64,000 bases of DNA from positions 1 through 64,000 of the IMG/VR virus record IMGVR_UViG_3300045988_009865; one strand, written 5' to 3'. The notes beneath the pieces are model-generated. The model worked only from the letters and a program-made list of their open reading frames with translations. It did not search any database and was not told the DNA's origin. A program made the translations under genes and the position numbers. Source of the DNA: a virus (lineage: Duplodnaviria > Heunggongvirae > Uroviricota > Caudoviricetes). Of the stretch, positions 2,505-29,239 are shown one piece after another; position 1 is the stretch's first letter, and each line of letters begins with the position of its first letter.

Positions 2505-3920
2505 ATGAGCGAGTTATTCAAACATGCGCACCTTCATGCAGGTCGAACTGAAAATGGTGCTGTAAACCATACTTCATCAATGTCTGCTCTGGTAGACTTT
2601 TACAAAGCCGCTGGCTCAAGCCGTAGCAATGTAGAAATCTTACCAGACCTGTTCTACAAAGCTTTGCGTGAGGATGTTGATGTTGCAGTTCGTATTTTAC
2701 TGCATATGCGAGATGTACGAGAAGGCATGGGTGAGCGTAAAGCTTTCCGAACTGTTTTACTTCAAGCGATTGAAGATAAGGTTTTAGAGCCTACACAGGT
2801 TCTTCGTATTATGGATAAGATTGCAGAACTTGGTCGTTTTGATGACTTCAAAATCTTCGTAGGTACTCGTTTTGAGACAGATGCCTTCAAACATTTAGAA
2901 GCAGCATTACTAGACCCTGCAACAGCAGGTTTAGCAGCTAAGTGGTTACCACGAGTAAAACCACGCCACAAACAGTTTGTAAAACGTTTCTGTAAGTTTG
3001 CAAACTTAAGCGAGAAAGAGTATCGCACACTGTTATCTGCACTGTCTGATACGGTTGAGCAAAAAATCTCTGCGAATGAGTTTGGTAAGATTGACTACAG
3101 CAAGATTCCTTCACTCGCTGCTGCACGTTACCAAAAACTCTTTAACCGTAAAGATGGAGAACGTTACAAAGCTTACATCGAATCACTATCAAAGGGTGAG
3201 GCTAAGATTAACGCTGGTGCTGTTTACCCATATGATGTGATTAAATCTATTAAGTATGGTAATGCAGATGTTGCTAATGAGCAGTGGAAAGCACTTCCAA
3301 ACTGGATGGCAGAAGGTGAAAACATCTTGTGTATGACTGATGTTTCAAGCTCAATGTCTTGGGTAAATCTTGGCTCAATTACTGCCCTTGATATTGGTGT
3401 ATCACTTGCCTTGTATGTAGCAGAACGCAATACAGGTTGCTTTAAAGATGAGTTAATGGTCTATTCAACAAACCCTCATTTCATTGAACTGAGTGGTGAT
3501 TTACGAAACCGTCATCGTCAGGTAATGCGTCATGTTGAATATGGTTCAACTAACTTACAAGCAGCTTTTGACCGTATTCTTGAGATAGGTAAGAGAAACA
3601 ACTTGACTCAGAAAGATATGCCAAGTAAGCTTATTATCTTCTCTGATATGGAGTTTAATCAGGTTGATGGTGCAAATGGTCGTACAAACTTTGAAGCAAT
3701 TCAGAGTAAGTACAAAAAAGCTGGATACGAAATGCCACAACTGGTATTCTGGTACTTAGCAAACCGTAATGGTACTTGCGAAGTATCCGTTAAGGATAAC
3801 GGTGTAGCAATGGTATCAGGGTTCTCTCCAGCCACTTTAAAAGCTCTGCTTGGTGGTGAGAAGTTTGACCCAATCAGCGTAATGCTCAAAGCAGTAATGA
3901 TTGACCGTTATATCTGGTAA
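2505..3920 (+). CDS. von Willebrand factor A (MIDAS) domain protein
   Basis: 471 aa; DxSxS MIDAS motif in MTDVSSSMSW; GAGAG RBS; N-terminal domain not recognised. Confidence 0.6.
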   Translation: MSELFKHAHLHAGRTENGAVNHTSSMSALVDFYKAAGSSRSNVEILPDLFYKALREDVDVAVRILLHMRDVREGMGERKAFRTVLLQAIEDKVLEPTQVLRIMDKIAELGRFDDFKIFVGTRFETDAFKHLEAALLDPATAGLAAKWLPRVKPRHKQFVKRFCKFANLSEKEYRTLLSALSDTVEQKISANEFGKIDYSKIPSLAAARYQKLFNRKDGERYKAYIESLSKGEAKINAGAVYPYDVIKSIKYGNADVANEQWKALPNWMAEGENILCMTDVSSSMSWVNLGSITALDIGVSLALYVAERNTGCFKDELMVYSTNPHFIELSGDLRNRHRQVMRHVEYGSTNLQAAFDRILEIGKRNNLTQKDMPSKLIIFSDMEFNQVDGANGRTNFEAIQSKYKKAGYEMPQLVFWYLANRNGTCEVSVKDNGVAMVSGFSPATLKALLGGEKFDPISVMLKAVMIDRYIW

Positions 3921-3938
3921 AAAGTTTTAAAAAGGGTA

Positions 3939-3967
3939 TTGACAATGTGTTTAATACCCTTTAATAT
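3939..3967 (+). promoter_or_regulatory. sigma70-like promoter (TTGACA, 17-nt spacer, TAATAT)
   Basis: -35 3939..3944, -10 3962..3967; 7-bp inverted repeat GGGTATT/AATACCC overlaps -35; TTTTAAAAAGGG tract upstream. Confidence 0.55.
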
Positions 3968-4028
3968 GTTCTACATAGAAACGAAATGAGAGCTTTTCTA
4001 AGATACTGAAAAATATTTTAAAAAGTTC

Positions 4029-4058
4029 TTGACAACCACTAAAAAATAATGTTAAAGT
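4029..4058 (+). promoter_or_regulatory. sigma70-like promoter for the tRNA cluster (TTGACA, 18-nt spacer, TAAAGT)
   Basis: -35 4029..4034; inverted repeat AACCACT/AGTGGTT overlaps spacer and -10; first tRNA begins about 27 nt downstream. Confidence 0.5.
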
Positions 4059-4084
4059 GGTTACATAGAGTTTGAAAAGTTTAT

Positions 4085-4161
4085 CTCTGTTTAGCTCAGC
4101 TTGGTAGAGCGTTCCGTTTGGGGCGGTAAGGCCGGAGGTTCAAGTCCTCCAACAGAGACCA
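4085..4161 (+). tRNA. tRNA-Pro (anticodon TGG)
   Basis: 7-bp acceptor CTCTGTT/AACAGAG, D-arm TAGCTCAGCTTGGTAGAGC, loop TTTGGGG, T-arm GGAGGTTCAAGTCCTCC, encoded CCA. Confidence 0.75.
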
Positions 4162-4168
4162 AATTAAT

Positions 4169-4246
4169 GTTCCAGTAGACAAAACGGTAAAGTCACCACT
4201 CTTTCAAAGTGGATATTTGAGGGTTCAAATCCCTTCTGGAACGCCA
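4169..4246 (+). tRNA. tRNA-Glu (anticodon TTC)
   Basis: acceptor GTTCCAG/CTGGAAC, anticodon arm CCACT-CTTTCAA-AGTGG, T-loop TTCAAAT, CCA. Confidence 0.8.
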
Positions 4247-4251
4247 GTTTT

Positions 4252-4327
4252 GACAGAAGACCAATTACAGCAAACTTAATCTTATTCATCTGACACGAAA
4301 TCGGACAAAGAAGAGATTTGGTCTGGT
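4252..4327 (+). repeat. covarying stem element copy 1 (CAGAAGACCAA ... TTGGTCTGG)
   Basis: AGACCAA 4258..4264 pairs with TTGGTCT 4318..4324; conserved ACAGCAA after 5' arm. Confidence 0.6.
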
Positions 4328-4337
4328 CATTAAGAAT

Positions 4338-4414
4338 TGCGGGTATAGAGAAAGGGCGTCTCACATGTCTCATTAGCATGGTATCGGCAGGTTCGACTCC
4401 TGCACCCGCCTCCA
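4338..4414 (+). tRNA. tRNA with CAT anticodon (Met or Ile2); register of acceptor ambiguous
   Basis: D-stem GAGA/TCTC, anticodon arm CATGT-CTCATTA-GCATG, T-arm GCAGGTTCGACTCCTGC, CCA; 1-72 mismatch or 6-bp acceptor. Confidence 0.5.
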
Positions 4415-4420
4415 ATTTTG

Positions 4421-4480
4421 CAGAAGACCGTATGCAGCAATAAACTACTTTTTGCGGATAAAAGAAAAAACACGGTCTGG
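4421..4480 (+). repeat. covarying stem element copy 2 (CAGAAGACCGT ... ACGGTCTGG)
   Basis: AGACCGT 4425..4431 pairs with ACGGTCT 4472..4478. Confidence 0.6.
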
Positions 4481-4491
4481 CAATGTATTAA

Positions 4492-4568
4492 GGTTAGGAA
4501 GCACATAAGGTATGTGCGGTCGCCTGTTAAGCGAATGGCACAGGGTTCGAATCCCTGACTAACCGCCA
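4492..4568 (+). tRNA. tRNA-Asn (anticodon GTT)
   Basis: acceptor GGTTAGG/ACTAACC (6/7), loop CTGTTAA, T-arm CAGGGTTCGAATCCCTG, CCA. Confidence 0.75.
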
Positions 4569-4577
4569 AATTTAAAT

Positions 4578-4665
4578 GTGTCGTTATCCCGTAGATGGTA
4601 GCGGTGGGGACTGTAAATCCCTTGTCATTGAGACTCGGTAGGTTCGACTCCTACACGGCACACCA
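4578..4665 (+). tRNA. tRNA-Tyr (anticodon GTA), long variable arm
   Basis: acceptor GTGTCGT/ACGGCAC, anticodon arm GGGGA-CTGTAAA-TCCCT, 15-nt variable arm, T-arm GTAGGTTCGACTCCTAC, CCA. Confidence 0.65.
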
Positions 4666-4671
4666 AATAAA

Positions 4672-4749
4672 GGTTATGTAGTTTAATCTGGTTAAAATAC
4701 TCCCCTGTCACGGGAGATGATGAGGGTTCAAATCCCTTCGTAACCGCCA
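4672..4749 (+). tRNA. tRNA-Asp (anticodon GTC)
   Basis: acceptor GGTTATG/CGTAACC, anticodon arm CTCCC-CTGTCAC-GGGAG, T-loop TTCAAAT, CCA. Confidence 0.8.
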
Positions 4750-4835
4750 AATTATAATAAGTATTTCAAGATGATGTTTTGAGAGGGCTATTTAGCCCCT
4801 CCCTTAAAGAGTTCTTACGAGTATTCTTTAAAGGA

Positions 4836-4910
4836 GCAGAAGACCAAATACAGCAAGTTACTTAAAATTTCAAGCCAATTTAATTTTGAAAAATTTAAAA
4901 CTTGGTCTGG
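4836..4910 (+). repeat. covarying stem element copy 3 (CAGAAGACCAA ... TTGGTCTGG) enclosing palindrome TTTCAAG..TTTTGAAA
   Basis: AGACCAA 4840..4846 pairs with TTGGTCT 4902..4908. Confidence 0.6.
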
Positions 4911-4923
4911 CTCAACAAATTTA

Positions 4924-5055
4924 CAGAAGACCGTTTACAGCAAAAACTAAACAATCTATTTCTCCGGTAAAGAAAAGGCGAAGGTTCGATTCCTTCACTC
5001 GGCAGATGTCGAGTTGGTGTAATGGTAGCACTTAAGATGATAAACAACGGTCTGG
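4924..5055 (+). repeat. covarying stem element copy 4 (CAGAAGACCGTT ... AACGGTCTGG) enclosing the permuted tRNA-like locus
   Basis: AGACCGTT 4928..4935 pairs with AACGGTCT 5046..5053 (8 bp). Confidence 0.6.
4959..5032 (+). pseudogene. circularly permuted tRNA-Thr(GGT)-like locus: 3' half, GAT linker, 5' half
   Basis: 3' half 4959..5004: anticodon arm TTTCT-CCGGTAA-AGAAA, T-arm GAAGG-TTCGATT-CCTTC, acceptor 3' ACTCGGC, A73; 5' half 5008..5032: acceptor 5' GTCGAGT (7/7 with one G.U), D-arm GTGT-AATGGTA-GCAC; C at position 33. Confidence 0.45.
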
Positions 5056-5062
5056 TAATTGT

Positions 5063-5194
5063 CTTTGTAGATAAGTTATTAAGCTTACCTGTGAGTATGC
5101 GACCACAAAGGGTGAAAGGGTAAATTCTAGATTTAAACCCAACAAGGCACATCGCTACAGACCTTAAGCAAGTCTGGGTAGCTTATCTACAAAG
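5063..5194 (+). ncRNA. long imperfect hairpin element (possible small structured RNA)
   Basis: 13-bp inverted repeat CTTTGTAGATAAG 5063..5075 / CTTATCTACAAAG 5182..5194 closing about 105 nt; no tRNA fold. Confidence 0.3.
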
Positions 5195-5204
5195 ATAATT
5201 TAAT

Positions 5205-5280
5205 GGAAGTGTAGCAGAATGGTGATGCGGCAGACTTTTAATCTGACAGGCGATGGGTTCGAATCCCTCCACTTCTACCA
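5205..5280 (+). tRNA. tRNA-Lys (anticodon TTT)
   Basis: acceptor GGAAGTG/CACTTCT (G1.U72), loop CTTTTAA, T-loop TTCGAAT, CCA. Confidence 0.7.
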
Positions 5281-5284
5281 ATAT

Positions 5285-5361
5285 GGTTCAGTCGCAGATA
5301 AGGTAATGCAGGGGTCTCATAAGCTCTATGAATGTGGGTTCGATTCCCATCTGAACCTCCA
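5285..5361 (+). tRNA. tRNA with CAT anticodon (Met or Ile2)
   Basis: perfect acceptor GGTTCAG/CTGAACC, loop CTCATAA, T-arm GTGGGTTCGATTCCCAT, CCA; anticodon stem has wobble pairs. Confidence 0.6.
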
Positions 5362-5362
5362 A

Positions 5363-5438
5363 GCTGGTATAGTTAAGAAGGTTATAACACTCCCCTGATA
5401 AGGGAACATCGGTGGTTCGATTCCACCTACCAGTACCA
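5363..5438 (+). tRNA. tRNA-Ile (anticodon GAT)
   Basis: acceptor GCTGGTA/TACCAGT, loop CTGATAA, T-arm GGTGGTTCGATTCCACC, CCA. Confidence 0.75.
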
Positions 5439-5453
5439 ATTTCAATAAAGTTG

Positions 5454-5482
5454 TTGACATTGAGATGCGACTACTTTATAGT
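5454..5482 (+). promoter_or_regulatory. sigma70-like promoter (TTGACA, 17-nt spacer, TATAGT)
   Basis: -35 5454..5459, -10 5477..5482; directly downstream of tRNA-Ile; drives region holding the tag-like mini-ORF and tRNA-like element. Confidence 0.55.
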
Positions 5483-5531
5483 AACCTTAGTTTTCGTTGC
5501 GTAGCGTCTATTTTGCAAATTTAAAATAAAT

Positions 5532-5567
5532 GCAAACGACAATGTTTTTCTGGCAGTAGCTTGATAG
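5532..5567 (+). other. tmRNA-tag-like mini reading frame GCA AAC GAC AAT GTT TTT CTG GCA GTA GCT TGA TAG (ANDNVFLAVA, double stop)
   Basis: starts with GCA and encodes an AND-initial, Ala-rich decapeptide with tandem stops, resembling tmRNA resume/tag frames; no ATG or RBS in frame. Confidence 0.3.
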
Positions 5568-5715
5568 GCTAAACACCAGTGAGGTCTTCCAATCCCTCAT
5601 CAAAGAATTTGGCGTACTAGCCCACGGTATGATTAATAAGGTGGGCAACATTCTAAAGGGTATCCCTTATGGGGCTTGGCTTAAATGCAATGAGTACCCT
5701 TTAAAATGTTAATTA

Positions 5716-5797
5716 CGGGGCGTATCTCAGCGGTCTTCTAAACCGCCGTTAACCGAGTAAGTGGAGTATGCGGGTTCGAGTCCTGCCGCCTCGACCA
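5716..5797 (+). ncRNA. aberrant tRNA-like structure: Ala-type acceptor (G3.U70, A73, CCA), Arg-type loop (CTTCTAA), no canonical D-arm, 23-nt extra segment
   Basis: acceptor CGGGGCG/CGCCTCG 7/7 with G3.U70; perfect hairpin GCGGT-CTTCTAA-ACCGC; T-arm GCGGG-TTCGAGT-CCTGC; only 7 nt between acceptor and anticodon-like stem. Confidence 0.5.
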
Positions 5798-5813
5798 ATT
5801 TTGGATGAAATCA

Positions 5814-6160
5814 TGAAAACTTGTATTAGGTGCAAACTTAGCAAGGATGAAAGTGATTTCTACATGAAAGATGGTAGGAGAACTCATTCATACTGTAAAA
5901 AGTGTGTTAATGAGCAAACCATAGAAAGACAAAGAGCACTTAAACTTTCAGCTATTGAGTACAAAGGTGGGATTTGTCATGATTGTGGTAAAAGGTATCA
6001 TCCAGCAGTGTATGACTTCCATCATTTGAATCCTTCAGAGAAAGATTTTAACATTGGTCATAGAAAAAGTCTTAAGTTCTCTCAGGAGCTAAAAGATGAA
6101 CTTGACAAATGTGTTTTGCTATGTTCAAATTGCCATAGGGTAAGACATGCAAAGTATTAG
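5814..6160 (+). CDS. HNH homing endonuclease
   Basis: CxxC...CxxC zinc motifs and YDFHHLNPSEKDFNIG...LLCSNCHR HNH core; ATG at 5814 preferred over track start 5768, which lies inside the tRNA-like element. Confidence 0.7.
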
Positions 6161-6297
6161 TTAGCAGATTGCTTAGACGACCTTATCGGGTCTCCGTGTA
6201 AGGAGGTGGTCTGTATCTCATGTTTTCCAGAACATGTAAATAATCTGAGAAGGGGCTTTACAGTGTTGCGAAAATACGGTAAGCTTCGAATTATAGT

Positions 6298-6380
6298 GTG
6301 GGACGATGTTAAGACTCTAAGGCATGAGCAACGGCCTCCAAAACCGTTTCAAAGGGGTTCAACTCCTCCGTCCCATGCCA
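6298..6380 (+). tRNA. tRNA-Trp (anticodon CCA)-like with about 7 extra nt in the D region
   Basis: acceptor GTGGGAC/GTCCCAT (G1.U72), loop CTCCAAA, T-arm AGGGGTTCAACTCCTCC, CCA; D region 26 nt rather than about 19. Confidence 0.45.
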
Positions 6381-6393
6381 AAGTCTTATTAGG

Positions 6394-6481
6394 GGTAGGT
6401 AGCGGCTAATGGCAGCCAAACAGTCTTGAAAACTGTTGCCACTGTAGAGATACGGTGAGGGTTCGACTCCTTTACTTACCG
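6394..6481 (+). tRNA. tRNA-Ser (anticodon TGA), long variable arm
   Basis: acceptor GGTAGGT/ACTTACC, anticodon arm ACAGT-CTTGAAA-ACTGT, about 20-nt variable arm, T-loop TTCGACT. Confidence 0.65.
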
Positions 6482-6637
6482 CCTAATAAGATTTAAAGCC
6501 AAGCTTCATTCGGATGTTGCTTTGGTATCCCTCGTGTATTGTCGTACACGCACAGTAAAGCACCTAGTAGGTGTCACGGAGAAGAGATAATATCAAGCTC
6601 TCCAAAGGTTCTAGTCACCGGATTAAACAAGACTATG

Positions 6638-6662
6638 CAAAGACCAATTTAGGTCTTTTTAG
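6638..6662 (+). terminator. hairpin AAAGACCAATTTAGGTCTTTTT (minimal AGACCAA/GGTCT unit plus T-run)
   Basis: stem AGACC/GGTCT followed by TTTTT; same AGACCAA word as stem elements 1 and 3. Confidence 0.4.
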
Positions 6663-6739
6663 AGGGCTTCTAAGGTTATTACAGCTTGTTGTGGAACCTT
6701 GTTGCTTAGGTTCTTAGAAGTTCTCTAAAAAGATTTAAT

Positions 6740-6817
6740 GGGAGATTGACGGTAATTGGTAAACCTACCATCCTTAGAAGTTGGTGTTTGAGGGTTCGAA
6801 TCCCTTGTCTCCTACCA
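6740..6817 (+). tRNA. tRNA with anticodon TAG (Leu-type anticodon) but short variable arm
   Basis: acceptor GGGAGAT/GTCTCCT, loop CTTAGAA, T-arm GAGGGTTCGAATCCCTT, A73, CCA. Confidence 0.5.
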
Positions 6818-6824
6818 AATTAAT

Positions 6825-6900
6825 GCAGGTGTAGCAAAATGGTTATGCGGCTGACTCTTAATCAGTAAGACGATGGGTTCAATTCCCTCCACCTGTACCA
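6825..6900 (+). tRNA. tRNA-Lys (anticodon CTT)
   Basis: acceptor GCAGGTG/CACCTGT, anticodon arm GCTGA-CTCTTAA-TCAGT, T-loop TTCAATT, CCA; body resembles the Lys(TTT) gene. Confidence 0.65.
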
Positions 6901-6906
6901 AACATT

Positions 6907-6982
6907 GGGGATGTAGTTTACATGGTTAAAACATAAGTTTTGCAAACTTAAGTACAGGGTTCAATTCCCTGCTTCTCCACCA
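6907..6982 (+). tRNA. tRNA-Ala (anticodon TGC)
   Basis: acceptor GGGGATG with G3.U70, anticodon arm TAAGT-TTTGCAA-ACTTA, T-arm CAGGGTTCAATTCCCTG, A73, CCA. Confidence 0.75.
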
Positions 6983-6988
6983 ATTAGT

Positions 6989-7063
6989 GCATCCATAGTT
7001 TAAACGGGAAAATTACAGTCTTCCAAACTGAGGTTGAGGGTTCGATTCCCTCTGGATGCTCCA
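6989..7063 (+). tRNA. tRNA-Gly (anticodon TCC)
   Basis: perfect acceptor GCATCCA/TGGATGC, loop CTTCCAA, T-loop TTCGATT, CCA. Confidence 0.8.
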
Positions 7064-7070
7064 AATTAAT

Positions 7071-7147
7071 GCTGCTTTCGTATAATTGGCTATTACACAT
7101 CCCTTGTAAGGATGGAAATGCAGGTTCGAGTCCTGTGAGCAGCACCA
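7071..7147 (+). tRNA. tRNA-Thr (anticodon TGT)
   Basis: acceptor GCTGCTT/GAGCAGC, anticodon arm CATCC-CTTGTAA-GGATG, T-loop TTCGAGT, CCA. Confidence 0.8.
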
Positions 7148-7242
7148 ATTCAGAGGTCAAGTGAAAGACCGCTGGTGTCAACTGAAGACCGTAACAAATT
7201 CCACGGAGTTGAGTTAGCGGCACAACTTCAGACCTCTTTCAT

Positions 7243-7317
7243 ACTCGCTTAGTTTATATGGTAAAACACCACCCTTACAAGATGAAGAAAAAGGTTCAAG
7301 TCCTTTAGTGAGTACCA
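7243..7317 (+). tRNA. tRNA, probably Val (anticodon TAC); anticodon stem weak
   Basis: acceptor ACTCGCT/AGTGAGT, D-stem GTTT/AAAC, loop CTTACAA, T-arm AAAGGTTCAAGTCCTTT, CCA. Confidence 0.5.
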
Positions 7318-7318
7318 T

Positions 7319-7396
7319 GTTCCAGTATCCCAATTGGCAGAGGATGCAAGCTCAAACCTTGTATTAGTGACGGTTCGAATCCGTCTTGGAACACCA
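7319..7396 (+). tRNA. tRNA with anticodon CAA (Leu-type anticodon) but short variable arm
   Basis: acceptor GTTCCAG/TTGGAAC, D-loop CAATTGGCAGA, anticodon arm GCAAG-CTCAAAC-CTTGT, T-arm GACGGTTCGAATCCGTC, A73, CCA. Confidence 0.55.
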
Positions 7397-7412
7397 ATTT
7401 TAGGAGAACACT

Positions 7413-7520
7413 ATGAGTGATAAGTCAATTGCAAAAAAGTTTATAGCGTCATTCAAAAATAGGCGTAAAAACAAAGATTGTGAAAAACTGTATGGTGTTC
7501 TTGTAGGTAAGCAGGATTAG
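7413..7520 (+). CDS. small hypothetical protein (35 aa) inside the tRNA cluster
   Basis: AGGAG RBS 7 nt upstream of ATG 7413; MSDKSIAKKFIASFKNRRKNKDCEKLYGVLVGKQD; stop overlaps 5' end of tRNA-Arg. Confidence 0.25.
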   Translation: MSDKSIAKKFIASFKNRRKNKDCEKLYGVLVGKQD

Positions 7521-7586
7521 TTCAAATGGATAGAGCAACAGTCTACGAAGCTGTTAATAGGGGTTCGAATCCCTTATCCTGCGCCA
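7511..7586 (+). tRNA. tRNA-Arg (anticodon ACG)
   Basis: perfect acceptor GCAGGAT/ATCCTGC, D-arm GTTCAAATGGATAGAGC, loop CTACGAA, T-loop TTCGAAT, CCA. Confidence 0.8.
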
Positions 7587-7605
7587 ATTTAAAGAGGCTA
7601 TTTAG

Positions 7606-8163
7606 ATGAGATATTTGAAGTATGCTTCATGGATTTTCTTAGCTTTGTTAGAGCCATTTGCAGCAATCTTAGCAGTTATCTTAGCACCTTTCGTAGTTCC
7701 ATTTTACAGTGAGAAGAAAGGACACTTACCTTTTGGATTCAGATGGATGGAGACATATGATAACCCAATTGATGGTGATAAAGGTCATGTCGAACGATGG
7801 GCTAAGATTAGAAAGGTTGGTAAGCTTGGTGTCTATTTGCAGAGAGTTGGATGGCTCTGGAGAAACAAAGCTTATAACTTCTCTTACCATGTGTTAGGAA
7901 GAGATGTAAAAGATGTTACTAAGTGGAAAGGTAATATCAACGTAAGTTCTGACCCTGAAGATAATCAGACAGGTTATCTCCTGATGTGGAACAGTAACGC
8001 TTGGGGATTATTCGCCTTTATCCCATCAATTAAAATCTTCGGTAAACAATTCTACTGGAGAATTTATGTTGGATGGAAACTTAAAAGTGTTGTCCCAGAA
8101 GAAAGAGCATTCTCAAGGGAAAGAGTTATGTTGGCATTCTTTATTCATCCACTAAGAAAGTAA
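7606..8163 (+). CDS. hypothetical membrane protein embedded in the tRNA cluster
   Basis: 185 aa; hydrophobic N-terminus; AAAGAGG RBS. Confidence 0.55.
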   Translation: MRYLKYASWIFLALLEPFAAILAVILAPFVVPFYSEKKGHLPFGFRWMETYDNPIDGDKGHVERWAKIRKVGKLGVYLQRVGWLWRNKAYNFSYHVLGRDVKDVTKWKGNINVSSDPEDNQTGYLLMWNSNAWGLFAFIPSIKIFGKQFYWRIYVGWKLKSVVPEERAFSRERVMLAFFIHPLRK

Positions 8164-8171
8164 AGATTTAA

Positions 8172-8247
8172 AGGGGATTAGTTTACAAGGTTAAAACCTC
8201 GGTCTTTGAAATCGAAGAAGTTGGTTCAATTCCAACATCCCCCGCCA
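8172..8247 (+). tRNA. tRNA-Gln (anticodon TTG)
   Basis: acceptor AGGGGAT/ATCCCCC (weak 1-72 pair), anticodon arm TCGGT-CTTTGAA-ATCGA, T-arm GTTGGTTCAATTCCAAC, CCA. Confidence 0.7.
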
Positions 8248-8249
8248 AT

Positions 8250-8328
8250 GCTCCATTACTCCAATTGGCAGAGAGGCCAGACTTAAAATCTGTGTTATGT
8301 ATCGGTTCGAATCCGATATGGAGTACCA
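8250..8328 (+). tRNA. tRNA with anticodon TAA (Leu-type anticodon) but short variable arm
   Basis: acceptor GCTCCAT/ATGGAGT, D-loop CAATTGGCAGA, anticodon arm CCAGA-CTTAAAA-TCTGT, T-arm ATCGGTTCGAATCCGAT, A73, CCA. Confidence 0.55.
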
Positions 8329-8333
8329 AATTT

Positions 8334-8409
8334 AGCGGTATAGCATAACTGGCAATGCAGCAGTCTCTGAAGCTGTCTTATTAAGGTTCAAATCCTTATG
8401 CCGCTGCCA
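8334..8409 (+). tRNA. tRNA-Gln (anticodon CTG)
   Basis: acceptor AGCGGTA/TGCCGCT, D-stem GCAT/ATGC, loop CTCTGAA, T-arm TAAGGTTCAAATCCTTA, CCA. Confidence 0.65.
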
Positions 8410-8440
8410 CTTCTAAGGGTTCTTACGAGAGTCCTTAAAT

Positions 8441-8516
8441 GTGGCCTTATCATAAAAGGTAATGACCCATGCTGTGAACATGGTCTATACGGGTTCAAAT
8501 CCCGTAGGTCACCCCA
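8441..8516 (+). tRNA. tRNA-His (anticodon GTG)
   Basis: acceptor GTGGCCT/AGGTCAC, perfect anticodon arm CCATG-CTGTGAA-CATGG, T-arm ACGGGTTCAAATCCCGT, CCA. Confidence 0.8.
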
Positions 8517-8521
8517 ATTTA

Positions 8522-8598
8522 TAGTCCAAGTAGCTTATATGGTTAAAGCGCGTGTCTGAAAAACATGAGAAGAGGGTTCAAATCCCACTGGACTACCA
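8522..8598 (+). tRNA. tRNA-Phe (anticodon GAA)
   Basis: acceptor TAGTCCA/TGGACTA 7/7, anticodon arm CGTGT-CTGAAAA-ACATG, T-loop TTCAAAT. Confidence 0.7.
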
Positions 8599-8614
8599 AT
8601 TTCAAAGGTGCTTA

Positions 8615-9349
8615 ATGAAAGAGATGACAGAACAAGGTAAGGAGATTTTTAATCTCTTAAAAACCGGTAGAGGGTTTTCTAATCCCCTTATTACTGGTGC
8701 AGCAGTTCTCGGTGGAACCGTAGCTGCCTCTACATCACTTGTAAGCTCTATTAGCTCTGTAACAGACCCTACAATGAAGGATAAGCTCATTGCTGCTGGA
8801 CTTACAACAGTTCTGCTTAGCAGCTTTACAACGAGTCTGACAAGCACTACATCAACCACTAAAACACTGACAGATTACGGTCAAAAGTCTATTGATGAGT
8901 TTTCATCACGTATGCAGGTAGCAAAAGGCTACTCCAATGTTATGGGTGCAGCAGGAGAGCAAGTTGGTTGTACACCATTTAGTGGTATTATGGGTGTTGC
9001 TACAGAGTATGGTCAAAAAGCTATTGACACAATTAACAGTGCACTAGACGGTGTTAATGATGTATTAAGTGACTTACAAGATGCTATTGATAAAGGTCTT
9101 GATACTGTTTCTGATTTAGCTAACCAAGCTGTTAGTAAGATTAATGAAGGTATCTCGAAGATTACAGCTTATGCAGATGAAGTTGTGCAGATGATTGAAG
9201 AAGAAGCTGCCCTTATTGCAGAGTACCTTAAAACGAATATCAATGGGTTCTTAGCAGGTATCTTACCAGACTGGTTTGATGATGCTTGTAAAACTGGTGT
9301 GATTGACACTATTGCAACACCAGAAATGAAGAACGCATTACAGAAATAA
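8615..9349 (+). CDS. hypothetical protein (Ser/Thr-rich N-terminal half)
   Basis: ATG at 8615 preferred over track GTG start 8552, which overlaps tRNA-Phe; AAAGGTG RBS. Confidence 0.5.
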   Translation: MKEMTEQGKEIFNLLKTGRGFSNPLITGAAVLGGTVAASTSLVSSISSVTDPTMKDKLIAAGLTTVLLSSFTTSLTSTTSTTKTLTDYGQKSIDEFSSRMQVAKGYSNVMGAAGEQVGCTPFSGIMGVATEYGQKAIDTINSALDGVNDVLSDLQDAIDKGLDTVSDLANQAVSKINEGISKITAYADEVVQMIEEEAALIAEYLKTNINGFLAGILPDWFDDACKTGVIDTIATPEMKNALQK

Positions 9350-9350
9350 T

Positions 9351-9443
9351 GGAAGATTAACCCTAAAAGGTAAGGGAGCAGTTTGCTAAACTGCCAGTAG
9401 CTGAGAAATCGGTGTACCAGTTCAAGTCTGGTATCTTCCTCCA
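9351..9443 (+). tRNA. tRNA-Ser (anticodon GCT), long variable arm
   Basis: perfect acceptor GGAAGAT/ATCTTCC, anticodon arm GCAGT-TTGCTAA-ACTGC, long variable arm, T-arm ACCAGTTCAAGTCTGGT, CCA. Confidence 0.75.
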
Positions 9444-9447
9444 ATTT

Positions 9448-9523
9448 GAATCCGTGACAGAAATGGCTATGTGCCTGTCTGCAAAACAGGTTTATAAGGG
9501 TTCGAGTCCCTTCGGATTCTCCA
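9448..9523 (+). tRNA. tRNA-Cys (anticodon GCA)
   Basis: perfect acceptor GAATCCG/CGGATTC, anticodon arm CCTGT-CTGCAAA-ACAGG, T-arm AAGGGTTCGAGTCCCTT, CCA. Confidence 0.8.
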
Positions 9524-9560
9524 AGTTATTTTACTCTCTCTCAATTAAAATAATAATAAT

Positions 9561-9620
9561 GCCCTGCTATGAGTATTCTTCCTTTCGCTACCGAAGAGTA
9601 TTTTTAGACAGGGCTTTTTT
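9561..9620 (+). terminator. rho-independent terminator closing the tRNA cluster
   Basis: stem GCCCTG 9561..9566 / CAGGGC 9609..9614 with internal CTTC/GAAG sub-stem, then TTTTTT. Confidence 0.6.
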
Positions 9621-9685
9621 ACAGAGCTATACTTTATAAGAAGCCTTATACAGTATGTCTCTGACGTACATTGTGGTTTCTCCTT

Positions 9686-9709
9686 GACGGTCTCTGTACC
9701 GTCTTTTTT
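9686..9709 (+). terminator. hairpin GACGGT-CTCTGT-ACCGTC followed by TTTTTT
   Basis: 6-bp perfect stem plus T-run upstream of structural module. Confidence 0.5.
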
Positions 9710-9745
9710 AAGGAGAAACATAATTAATTATTTGGAGAAAACATA

Positions 9746-9946
9746 ATGAGTGAGACCGTTTATAAAGAACTTTATGAAGCTAACAAAAAGCTGGAATTTA
9801 TGCAGAACACTATCATGGCAATTGCAGACAGATTATCTGTAGCAACAGGTATTGATATCAAAGAGGCATCTATGGATGCACTTCTTGATGCTGTTGATGC
9901 TAAATTCGAAGTTAAGAAAGAAGAGACTGCTACAGACTCTGAATAA
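9746..9946 (+). CDS. hypothetical small acidic protein at head of packaging operon
   Basis: 66 aa; GGAGAAAAC RBS; position immediately upstream of terminase large subunit. Confidence 0.45.
   Translation: MSETVYKELYEANKKLEFMQNTIMAIADRLSVATGIDIKEASMDALLDAVDAKFEVKKEETATDSE

Positions 9947-21223: not shown

Positions 21224-29239
<8,016 letters not shown>

Follow-up and report, generated by a model that had tools for sequence, protein, structure and literature searches.

We analyzed a 64,000-nucleotide (nt) stretch of phage DNA (positions 1 to 64,000 of the IMG/VR virus record IMGVR_UViG_3300045988_009865), referred to here as the window, which is a Felixounavirus (FelixO1-like) genome. A gene for a 471-amino acid protein with DUF2828 and DUF7788/vWA domains occupies positions 2505–3920 on the (+) strand and lies upstream of a cluster of 25 transfer RNA (tRNA) genes called by ARAGORN across 4085–9523. 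Two sigma-70-like promoter matches, at 3939–3967 and 4029–4058 on the (+) strand, are found 5′ of this cluster of tRNAs and noncoding RNAs (each 10/12 in a consensus scan). Within the cluster, a stem element occurs in four copies, and the fourth carries the subject of this analysis, a tRNA-like sequence at 4959–5032 in which the 3′ half precedes the 5′ half. The 461 bases around 4959–5032 match 252 phage records, mostly at 95–99% identity.

Read in native order, 4959–5032 consists of a tRNA 3′ half, the trinucleotide GAT, and a tRNA 5′ half, all on the (+) strand. Specifically, the hairpin TTTCT-CCGGTAA-AGAAA (4959–4975), which a sequence-only reading of this DNA had taken as an anticodon arm and which is equivalent to the V region of the YrlA RNAs discussed below, is followed by the linker AGGC (4976–4979), the T arm GAAGG-TTCGATT-CCTTC (4980–4996), which the tRNA and YrlA models both align to their T arms, and the acceptor 3′ strand ACTCGGC (4997–5003). 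An A (5004) and GAT (5005–5007) then lead to the acceptor 5′ strand GTCGAGT (5008–5014), TG (5015–5016), and the D arm GTGT-AATGGTA-GCAC, which contains G18 and G19 (5017–5031). The two acceptor strands make up a closed acceptor-like stem-loop, ACTCGGC-AGAT-GTCGAGT (4997–5014), which is supported by covariation and has a loop of 4 nt (AGAT) without CCA.

When the halves were rejoined (5008..5032 + 4959..5004), ARAGORN called a tRNA-Thr(ggt) in all rearrangements tested, and none of 1,000 mononucleotide shuffles of the rearranged 71-mer was called a tRNA; in native order, no tRNA gene was called by ARAGORN in 4900–5079. Rfam at gathering thresholds matched nothing except tRNAs in the window, and the Rfam tRNA model (RF00005) covered only the 3′ part of the module (22 bits, model positions 15–71, cut-off of 29 bits). 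An intron-containing or split tRNA was ruled out, as a second matching half is absent both upstream and downstream. The permuted cloverleaf at 4959–5032 is real, and the sequence-only reading, which had described two circularly permuted halves inside the fourth stem element, predicted that they would join into a cloverleaf, and proposed this ARAGORN run, was right on each of these points.

The four stem elements share a 9-mer, CAGAAGACC, whose four copies are all located in the tRNA cluster (0.5 would be expected by chance in the whole window) and are each followed by CAGCAA 14 nt downstream and by GGTCTGG another 50–125 nt on. The elements lie on the (+) strand at 4251–4329 (copy 1), 4418–4483 (copy 2), 4834–4913 (copy 3), and 4921–5058 (copy 4, an RNA of ~140 nt that carries the permuted module), scoring 65.7, 63.9, 79.6, and 51.6 bits, respectively, with R2, which like R1 is a covariance model of the common terminal structure, or handle. 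According to ARAGORN coordinates, copy 1 occupies the spacer between tRNA-Glu (ends at 4246) and tRNA-Met (starts at 4338) and copy 2 that between tRNA-Met (ends at 4414) and tRNA-Asn (starts at 4492), while copies 3 and 4 are arranged in tandem. Exactly four handles and no fifth copy were found in 3900–9800 by the covariance model with filters off.

The handle comprises a 4-base pair (bp) outer helix, a 3×1 internal loop (A-N-A opposite a purine), and a 7- to 8-bp inner helix beginning with A-G, and on the 3′ side of the inner-helix 5′ strand follows an unpaired UUACAGCAA (U-N-N-CAGCAA in the alignment). In copy 4, these parts correspond to 4921–4924/5055–5058 (outer helix), 4925–4927 opposite 5054 (internal loop), and 4928–4935/5046–5053 (inner helix), with the conserved motif UUUACAGCAA at 4934–4943 on the (+) strand directly after the inner-helix 5′ strand. 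We aligned 14 short handle copies drawn from Felix-like phages and Yersinia phage P778 (53% identity in the Ro-like protein) and found that 98.1% of helix positions were paired and that 8 of 11 pairs were altered on both sides. None of 500 shuffles reached the observed values, and partners slid out of register paired in only 21–42% of cases. CAGCAA was invariant across the 14 aligned elements and also occurs in distant phages. Copy 4 is further supported by covariation of its helices and by its fold, the unconstrained minimum-energy structure of 4895–5065 consisting of the closing stem and four hairpins. The four elements are paralogues with a common handle and differing middle parts.

Positions 5057–5200 of the window, between copy 4 and tRNA-Lys, hold a separate RNA that is both conserved and structured. 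It has a long closing stem with 22-nt arms that are 91% complementary, and 11 of its predicted pairs are maintained via two-sided changes across Ounavirinae. Its apical hairpin, ACAGAC-CUUAAGCAA-GUCUGG, resembles a miniature handle motif (CUUUAGCAA in relatives), and no Rfam match was found for this RNA.

We compared copy 4 across 32 Felix-like sources (the window and 31 fetched loci, designated here by L numbers like the other loci and contigs), which yielded 15 distinct sequences, 11 of which were used for pair counts. In these 11 distinct Ounavirinae sequences, the T arm was nearly invariant (one bears a single substitution), and the D arm had an invariant stem and a loop variable at one position. 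The closed acceptor-like stem was 100% paired, with three of its seven pairs altered on both sides (variants ACTCGGC/GTCGAGT, ACACGT/GCGTGT, and ACCCTTC/GAAGGGT); in the sister lineages L017, L021, and L022 it has 6 bp and a 4-nt loop. The supposed anticodon loop behaved differently from these arms, reading CCGGTAA, CGGTAA, CTGGTAA, CTATGAA, or GGGTA. It has 6 nt in many Felixounaviruses (L002, L004, L005, L007, L008, L011, and L014), places ATG at the anticodon position in L022 (CTATGAA), and shrinks to 5 nt on a different stem in L019 and L020 (GGGTA). ARAGORN accordingly labeled the rearranged relatives ???, Thr, SeC, His, or Arg. The suspicion voiced in the sequence-only reading that this loop is unlike that of a working tRNA thus gained support, in that both its length and its triplet differ among relatives, while the L017, L018, and L021 lineages have U33 and retain GGU. 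Because the arms are near-invariant, the stem changes by compensation, the anticodon is unconserved, and the acceptor is closed without CCA, both a decoding tRNA-Thr and a drifting pseudogene at 4959–5032 are very unlikely.

One database entry bears on this region. GenBank MZ726792.1 lists a 129-nt "tRNA-Thr-GGT; detected by tRNAscan-SE" at 27251–27379 (L032 3108–3236). We rejected this call as a tRNAscan-SE artefact in which the real 3′ half is joined to an unrelated upstream stretch that serves as the 5′ strand. A correction is thus due in at least one genome record, where the locus is deposited as tRNA-Thr(GGT).

Next, we characterized the protein encoded at 2505–3920, which we propose as the partner of these RNAs. 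Pfam searches at E ≤ 0.01 identified DUF7788 (2.4e-43), DUF2828 (2.9e-29), and a weak VWA_2 match, and the protein matches PHROG 850, labeled "RNA-binding protein." An AlphaFold2 model built with 45 homologues had a predicted local distance difference test score of 87 and a predicted template modeling (TM) score of 0.88. Searching the PDB with this model by Foldseek revealed that the top 11 matches were all Ro60/TROVE proteins aligned over their full length (515–566 columns; E-values of about 1e-7, TM-scores up to 0.66), among them Xenopus Ro60, the Deinococcus Ro60 orthologue Rsr, and Ro60 of Thermus phage phiLo. At the sequence level, phmmer found no match to the PDB at E ≤ 1. With its ring of HEAT repeats and its C-terminal vWA domain, the product of this open reading frame (ORF) is modeled as having the Ro60 fold, and mycobacteriophage homologues carry the annotation "Ro-like RNA binding protein." The DUF2828 family as a whole is a large one, with 5,779 clusters (50% identity, E ≤ 1e-3), and reaches giant viruses and eukaryotes; its genes are frequently found next to tRNA clusters and to genes for RNA repair, such as those for RtcB, RNA ligases, and CCA-adding enzyme.

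A 2024 preprint described Bas63 gp130, encoded directly upstream of the Felixounavirus tRNAs, as structurally similar to Ro60, reported that it counters the Ppl defence, and suggested that it "possibly" acts with Y RNAs concealed among the tRNA genes. From position and fold, we infer that gp130 corresponds to the ORF at 2505–3920.

To extend the comparison to distant phages, we counted R1 and R2 matches around DUF2828 genes. Copies adjoin these genes on the same strand in phages of Listeria (LP-048), Staphylococcus (6ec), Aeromonas (4_4572, with seven copies), and Mycobacterium (a weak handle match in Rumpelstiltskin), and copies next to a DUF2828 gene were also found in a Yersinia phage. Among 84 loci, mostly from IMG/VR, whose proteins are 29–48% identical, there were 55 matches at E ≤ 1, 54 of them on the strand of the gene (binomial p = 3e-15), and 40 matches, distributed over 35 loci, lay no more than 400 nt from it. 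A further 80 loci from GTDB genomes gave 44 matches, 43 of which were on the strand of the gene and nearly all just upstream of it, so that 97 of the 99 matches in the two sets together share the strand of the gene. No match at E ≤ 1 was found in Vibrio phage ValKK3, Campylobacter phage CPX, or L028–L031. The strand-specific association of the handle with DUF2828 genes across phages is strong.

The permuted module itself also recurs in this wider set. The handle together with the full module was found in Cronobacter phage S13 (compared with copy 4 by segmentation) and twice in contig L117. In S13 and one of the L117 copies, the acceptor loop contains A-CCA directly after the 7-bp 3′ strand and then a 5- to 7-nt spacer, while a GAAA tetraloop closes the acceptor of the other L117 copy. 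Versions with the T arm alone occur in Yersinia phage P778, L069, L081, and L027.

Other handle RNAs have different middle parts. Four IMG/VR contigs (L047 2269–2379, L048 2732–2842, L052 144–286, and L065 2728–2837) have in common the module CCUUUC(U/C)GGAGGGGAAAG ... AAAAACUCGCCAA, and L093 and L118 have another, GGUGAG-UUUCGAUU-UCUCAC. Judged from their sequences, such alternatives suggest that the middle parts may be exchangeable effector modules. Just upstream of the permuted tRNA-like RNA of S13 (L036 8147–8297) lie two long "tRNAs" of 121 and 113 nt (7895–8015 and 8025–8137; 57 and 41 bits with the Rfam tRNA model), in which an insert of ~65 nt replaces the anticodon region and includes GUAUUCAGCA, which nearly reproduces the handle motif. 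In Yersinia phage vB_YenM_P778 (PP693300), the record gives just tiny hypothetical ORFs for L033 6440–11100, a region where we found 24 ARAGORN tRNAs and three handle RNAs, as well as a tRNA-like sequence with a large insertion at about 7998–8140.

The arrangement of copy 4 has a counterpart in the YrlA Y RNAs (RF02553; Chen et al. 2014, PMC4201824), which run from a V region through a T arm and a loop-closed acceptor stem to a D arm, pair their ends in a stem bound by Ro, and in bacteria and mycobacteriophages are encoded next to Ro60 on its strand (PMC4201824). Copy 4 has the same order of V region, T arm, closed acceptor, and D arm between stem-joined ends; it likewise lies on the strand of a Ro60-fold gene at a distance of ~1 kb (from the end of the ORF at 3920 to the start of the RNA at 4921, within the 4-kb limit applied); and it, too, has paralogues without the full tRNA module (cf. 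YrlB). In line with this, the Rfam YrlA model aligned to copy 4 in native order, over the T arm, closed stem, and D arm (model positions 25–83), while a scan of 7 kb with this model gave no match at E ≤ 10. Copy 4 differs in that its proposed partner belongs to DUF2828 rather than Pfam TROVE and in that it sits within a tRNA operon. The sequence-only reading had known of no phage precedent, but the YrlA Y RNAs of bacteria and mycobacteriophages are tRNA mimics with the same order (PMC4201824). Because these RNAs already show exactly this order, a splicing endonuclease, the lack of which in bacteria had been raised as an objection, is not required. By analogy, copy 4 may be read as a functional counterpart of YrlA, that is, a tRNA mimic on a Y-like RNA with a different handle.

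Circularly permuted tRNA genes are known from Cyanidioschyzon merolae and other algae and from some archaea, alongside the two-piece permuted transfer-messenger RNA (tmRNA). The algal and archaeal genes encode the 3′ half ahead of the 5′ half, with a short spacer between the acceptor strands; permuted tRNA and tmRNA genes give functional decoding or tagging RNAs by way of a bulge-helix-bulge and splicing endonuclease or by cleavage into two pieces. Copy 4 shares the 3′-before-5′ order and the complementary, closely spaced acceptor strands with the algal and archaeal genes but differs from them in that its anticodon is unconserved. Moreover, no 3-4-3 bulge-helix-bulge motif was found in copy 4, where the termini at 26/27 lead through linkers of 23 and 14 nt into an 8+4-bp helix with a 3×1 loop. 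By-eye comparisons of the handle with two known structures, loop A of the hairpin ribozyme (AGAA / A-GUC) and the helix of vertebrate Y RNAs (GGUCCGA / UUGACU), were rejected, as strands and registers do not fit.

Another parallel to the locus is Thermus phage phiLo, whose Ro60 is known together with Yrl1 and Yrl2 (PDB 9KOP/9L5Y; PMC12135203). As in the window, a Ro60-fold ring protein and several adjacent small RNAs occur together in a phage, and the phiLo study proposes host RNA decay or defence as the target of the particle (PMC12135203). The phiLo RNAs differ in that they carry a CGAA motif and bind a true TROVE protein, and neither a tRNA-like module nor a CAGCAA motif has been described for them (PMC12135203).

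The Class I RNAs of dictyostelids (Rfam RF01414) were reportedly the subject of earlier studies by Aspegren in 2004 and Avesson in 2011. They have been described as unique to dictyostelids (Kjellin 2021, PMC7919456) and are characterized by a 5′ AAG, a 6-bp stem joining the ends, an 11-nt motif (CCUUACAGCAA), a variable remainder, and a 3′ CUGU (PMC7919456). Their stem starts with G-C and varies in sequence by compensatory changes, and the 11-nt motif adjoins its 5′ strand, with U3, C6, C9, A10, and A11 near-invariant (PMC7919456). The phage RNAs too read A-A-G, stem, (C/U)UUACAGCAA, variable part, stem, CUG(U/G); their end-joining stem likewise begins with G-C and varies by compensation, and an unpaired (C)CUUACAGCAA directly follows the 5′ strand ahead of a modular remainder. 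The motif UUUACAGCAA of copy 4 equals the core of CCUUACAGCAA. The near-invariant positions of CCUUACAGCAA (U, C, C, A, and A) are matched by window copies 1 and 4, and copies 2 and 3 deviate with an A at position 3; L050, L053, L054, L058, and L064 contain the 11-mer exactly. Where the Class I RNAs have their ends, the window sequences read AAG ... CUGG and those of most distant phages AAG ... CUGU. The phage handle and the dictyostelid Class I RNAs share a signature.

This likeness was also evident in searches. RF01414 matched all four window copies over their full length (19.2, 18.0, 15.3, and 12.9 bits for copies 1 to 4) in a low-stringency Rfam search. It was the top Rfam match of copy 1 and the best non-tRNA match for the one distant phage element tested; for copy 2, it was exceeded only by tRNA-related models lying on neighboring tRNA genes, and it was weaker for copies 3 and 4. 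The metagenomic copy L058 scored 25.4 bits (E = 0.0035), and all phage copies (12.9–25.4 bits) fall below the RF01414 cut-off of 41.5 bits. Conversely, of 34 curated Class I RNAs from D. discoideum, 25 fitted a descriptor written from the window copies alone, which accepted none of 6,800 shuffles of those RNAs and found 0.2 sites per shuffled 64-kb window. The phage RNAs differ from Class I RNAs in extending into an outer helix and internal loop, in the CUGG end of the window copies, and in having no DUSE promoter, which lies ~60 nt upstream in dictyostelids. The RNA recognition motif protein Rnp1A/CIBP is the sole proven Class I binder, and the uncharacterised DDB_G0281243 co-purified with DdR-21, one of the Class I RNAs. 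The literature searched yielded no link between Class I RNAs and Ro60 or phages.

Taken together, we consider it probable that 4959–5032 is not a tRNA gene but the tRNA-shaped effector module of a phage noncoding RNA of ~140 nt (4921–5058) that partners the Ro60-like protein. Transcription of the four RNAs would start at the promoter-like sites at 3939 and 4029, jointly with that of the tRNAs, and the RNAs may be excised by the same enzymes that trim the adjacent tRNAs, given that copies 1 and 2 fill the inter-tRNA spacers exactly. The handle would be the binding site of the upstream ring protein, much as the closing stem of Y RNAs is for Ro60/Rsr, and the variable middle part would determine what the particle engages. 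In copy 4, the hairpin, T arm, loop-closed acceptor stem, and D arm could fold into a tRNA-like L shape. As no anticodon is conserved, copy 4 cannot decode, and, having no free CCA end either, it would therefore act as a tRNA mimic. Such a mimic could link the Ro-like protein to some factor that recognizes tRNA or, alternatively, serve as a decoy for a tRNA-targeting host enzyme or defence nuclease, following the tethering and decoy logic put forward for Rsr-YrlA.

Several observations weigh against this interpretation. The handle of copy 4 does not have the GNCGAAN0-1G motif of YrlA, in place of which stand the A-N-A/R internal loop and UUACAGCAA. The YrlA model scores 17.4 bits against a cut-off of 69 bits; by this score and the missing motif, membership of copy 4 in the YrlA family itself is ruled out. 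A GGCGAAG at 4977–4983 recalls the Ro motif, but we regard it as a coincidence, since it spans the junction of V region and T arm and reads GGAGAAG in L004, L005, and L017. In addition, the Levitt pair 15–48 would be a noncanonical A-C. The fold energy of 4895–5065 is unexceptional (z = −0.14), so the support for the fold is comparative rather than thermodynamic. On the protein side, Pfam TROVE gave no match at E ≤ 0.01 and identity to the Ro60 structures is just 10–15%. Finally, no RNA match was obtained at roughly half of the distant DUF2828 loci, and mere adjacency of genes is no proof of a complex.

The main mechanistic alternative is a variant of this explanation that is distinct only in the state of the acceptor end. 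RNase P would open the loop between 5007 and 5008, trimming of the 3′ end to A5004 and addition of CCA would follow, and the handle would hold together the pieces of a two-piece tRNA-like RNA that may even be charged. The acceptor stem of copy 4 has 7 bp, the main RNase P determinant, YrlA of M. smegmatis, which has such a stem, is cut by RNase P and gains CCA in vivo (PMC4201824), and A-CCA is encoded in the acceptor loop of S13 and L117. The loop of the window phage, however, is just AGAT, and the 6-bp stems with 4-nt loops in L017, L021, and L022 and the GAAA tetraloop in one L117 copy do not favor such processing; we regard this variant as unlikely. A different role, in which the stem elements work in cis as signals for the processing or stability of the polycistronic tRNA precursor (RNase entry or stop sites), rather than as free-standing RNAs, and are unrelated to the upstream protein, would account for their location within the tRNA operon and for the exact fit of copies 1 and 2 in the spacers. 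Against it, the elements of the Listeria and Staphylococcus phages, the Aeromonas phage, and most metagenomic elements flank a DUF2828 gene and not tRNAs, the strand bias is 97/99, and an invariant single-stranded 9-mer and modular inserts are unexpected for mere spacers, which makes this role improbable.

The sequence-only reading had left two options, a decayed pseudogene and a processed permuted gene, neither of which fared well. A functionless relic of a tandem tRNA duplication that lost its outer halves is a simple route to the arrangement and may well be its evolutionary origin, and the C at position 33 and the T-arm-only versions, which resemble erosion, agree with decay. Yet the element is kept in 252 phage records and always within a conserved handle, its T and D arms are near-invariant whereas the closed stem changes by compensatory pairs in three Ounavirinae lineages, and the same architecture appears again in an unrelated Straboviridae phage and an IMG/VR contig, in phages whose Ro-like proteins are just ~40% identical; a relic is thus hardly to be expected. 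We give next to no chance to a working circularly permuted tRNA-Thr(GGU) gene whose product is processed or rejoined to decode ACC/ACU. ARAGORN accepts the rearranged sequence, three lineages keep U33 and GGU, and tRNAscan-SE placed its "tRNA-Thr-GGT" over the region in MZ726792, but that 129-nt call depends on an unrelated 5′ strand. Furthermore, many Felixounaviruses have 6-nt loops, "anticodons" for His, SeC, and Arg appear elsewhere, L022 has ATG and L019/L020 a 5-nt loop on a different stem, the break at 26/27 is joined to the 12-bp handle by long linkers with no bulge-helix-bulge, and a loop of 4 nt that lacks CCA closes the acceptor end. An ordinary tRNA-Thr(UGU) is, moreover, already present in the window (ARAGORN, 7071–7147).

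If the RNAs do partner the Ro60-like protein, a scrambled-tRNA oddity becomes a candidate ribonucleoprotein, composed of a phage Ro60-like protein already tied to escape from the Ppl defence in Bas63 and four candidate RNAs, one of them a tRNA mimic. DUF2828, a very large family without assigned function, would gain a candidate RNA ligand with a defined motif. In a broader and more tentative proposal, which we hold to be possible rather than likely, the stem elements represent a large undescribed family of phage RNAs that partner DUF2828-type Ro60 paralogues, with the Class I RNAs, regarded since 2004 as peculiar to social amoebae, as its eukaryotic branch. The Class I RNAs would then serve a second Ro-like particle as its "Y RNAs," with tRNA mimicry as one among several modules that can be exchanged. 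For the Dictyostelium RNAs, this would mean a first relative beyond the amoebae as well as a concrete candidate for their mechanism.

Further features were noted in the tRNA cluster of the window. At 5716–5794, just upstream of an HNH ORF, the Rfam tRNA model scores 31.7 bits, barely over its cut-off, with no ARAGORN call, which marks an atypical tRNA-like gene. The ORF itself (5813–6160) is small, has a weak HNH endonuclease match (E = 0.0085), and is probably a homing endonuclease. A weak Rfam match to permuted tmRNA at 5380–5564 (27.6 bits; cut-off of 47) overlaps tRNA-Ile and a promoter-like site at 5454 and is probably due to chance. Two more inter-tRNA inverted repeats, at 7140–7242 and 6649–6738, do not match the handle model; one reads TTCAGAGGTC ... 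GACCTCTTTCA around GAAGACCGT, and the other is a hairpin with 26-nt arms that are 85% complementary. Lastly, a repeated hairpin with a conserved GGTTCTTACGAG-like center (cttaaagagttcttacgagtattctttaaag; ctaagggttcttacgagagtccttaaa) is present at 4797–4832 and 8408–8440 and also occurs in Yersinia phage P778 (L033, about 7722–7760).

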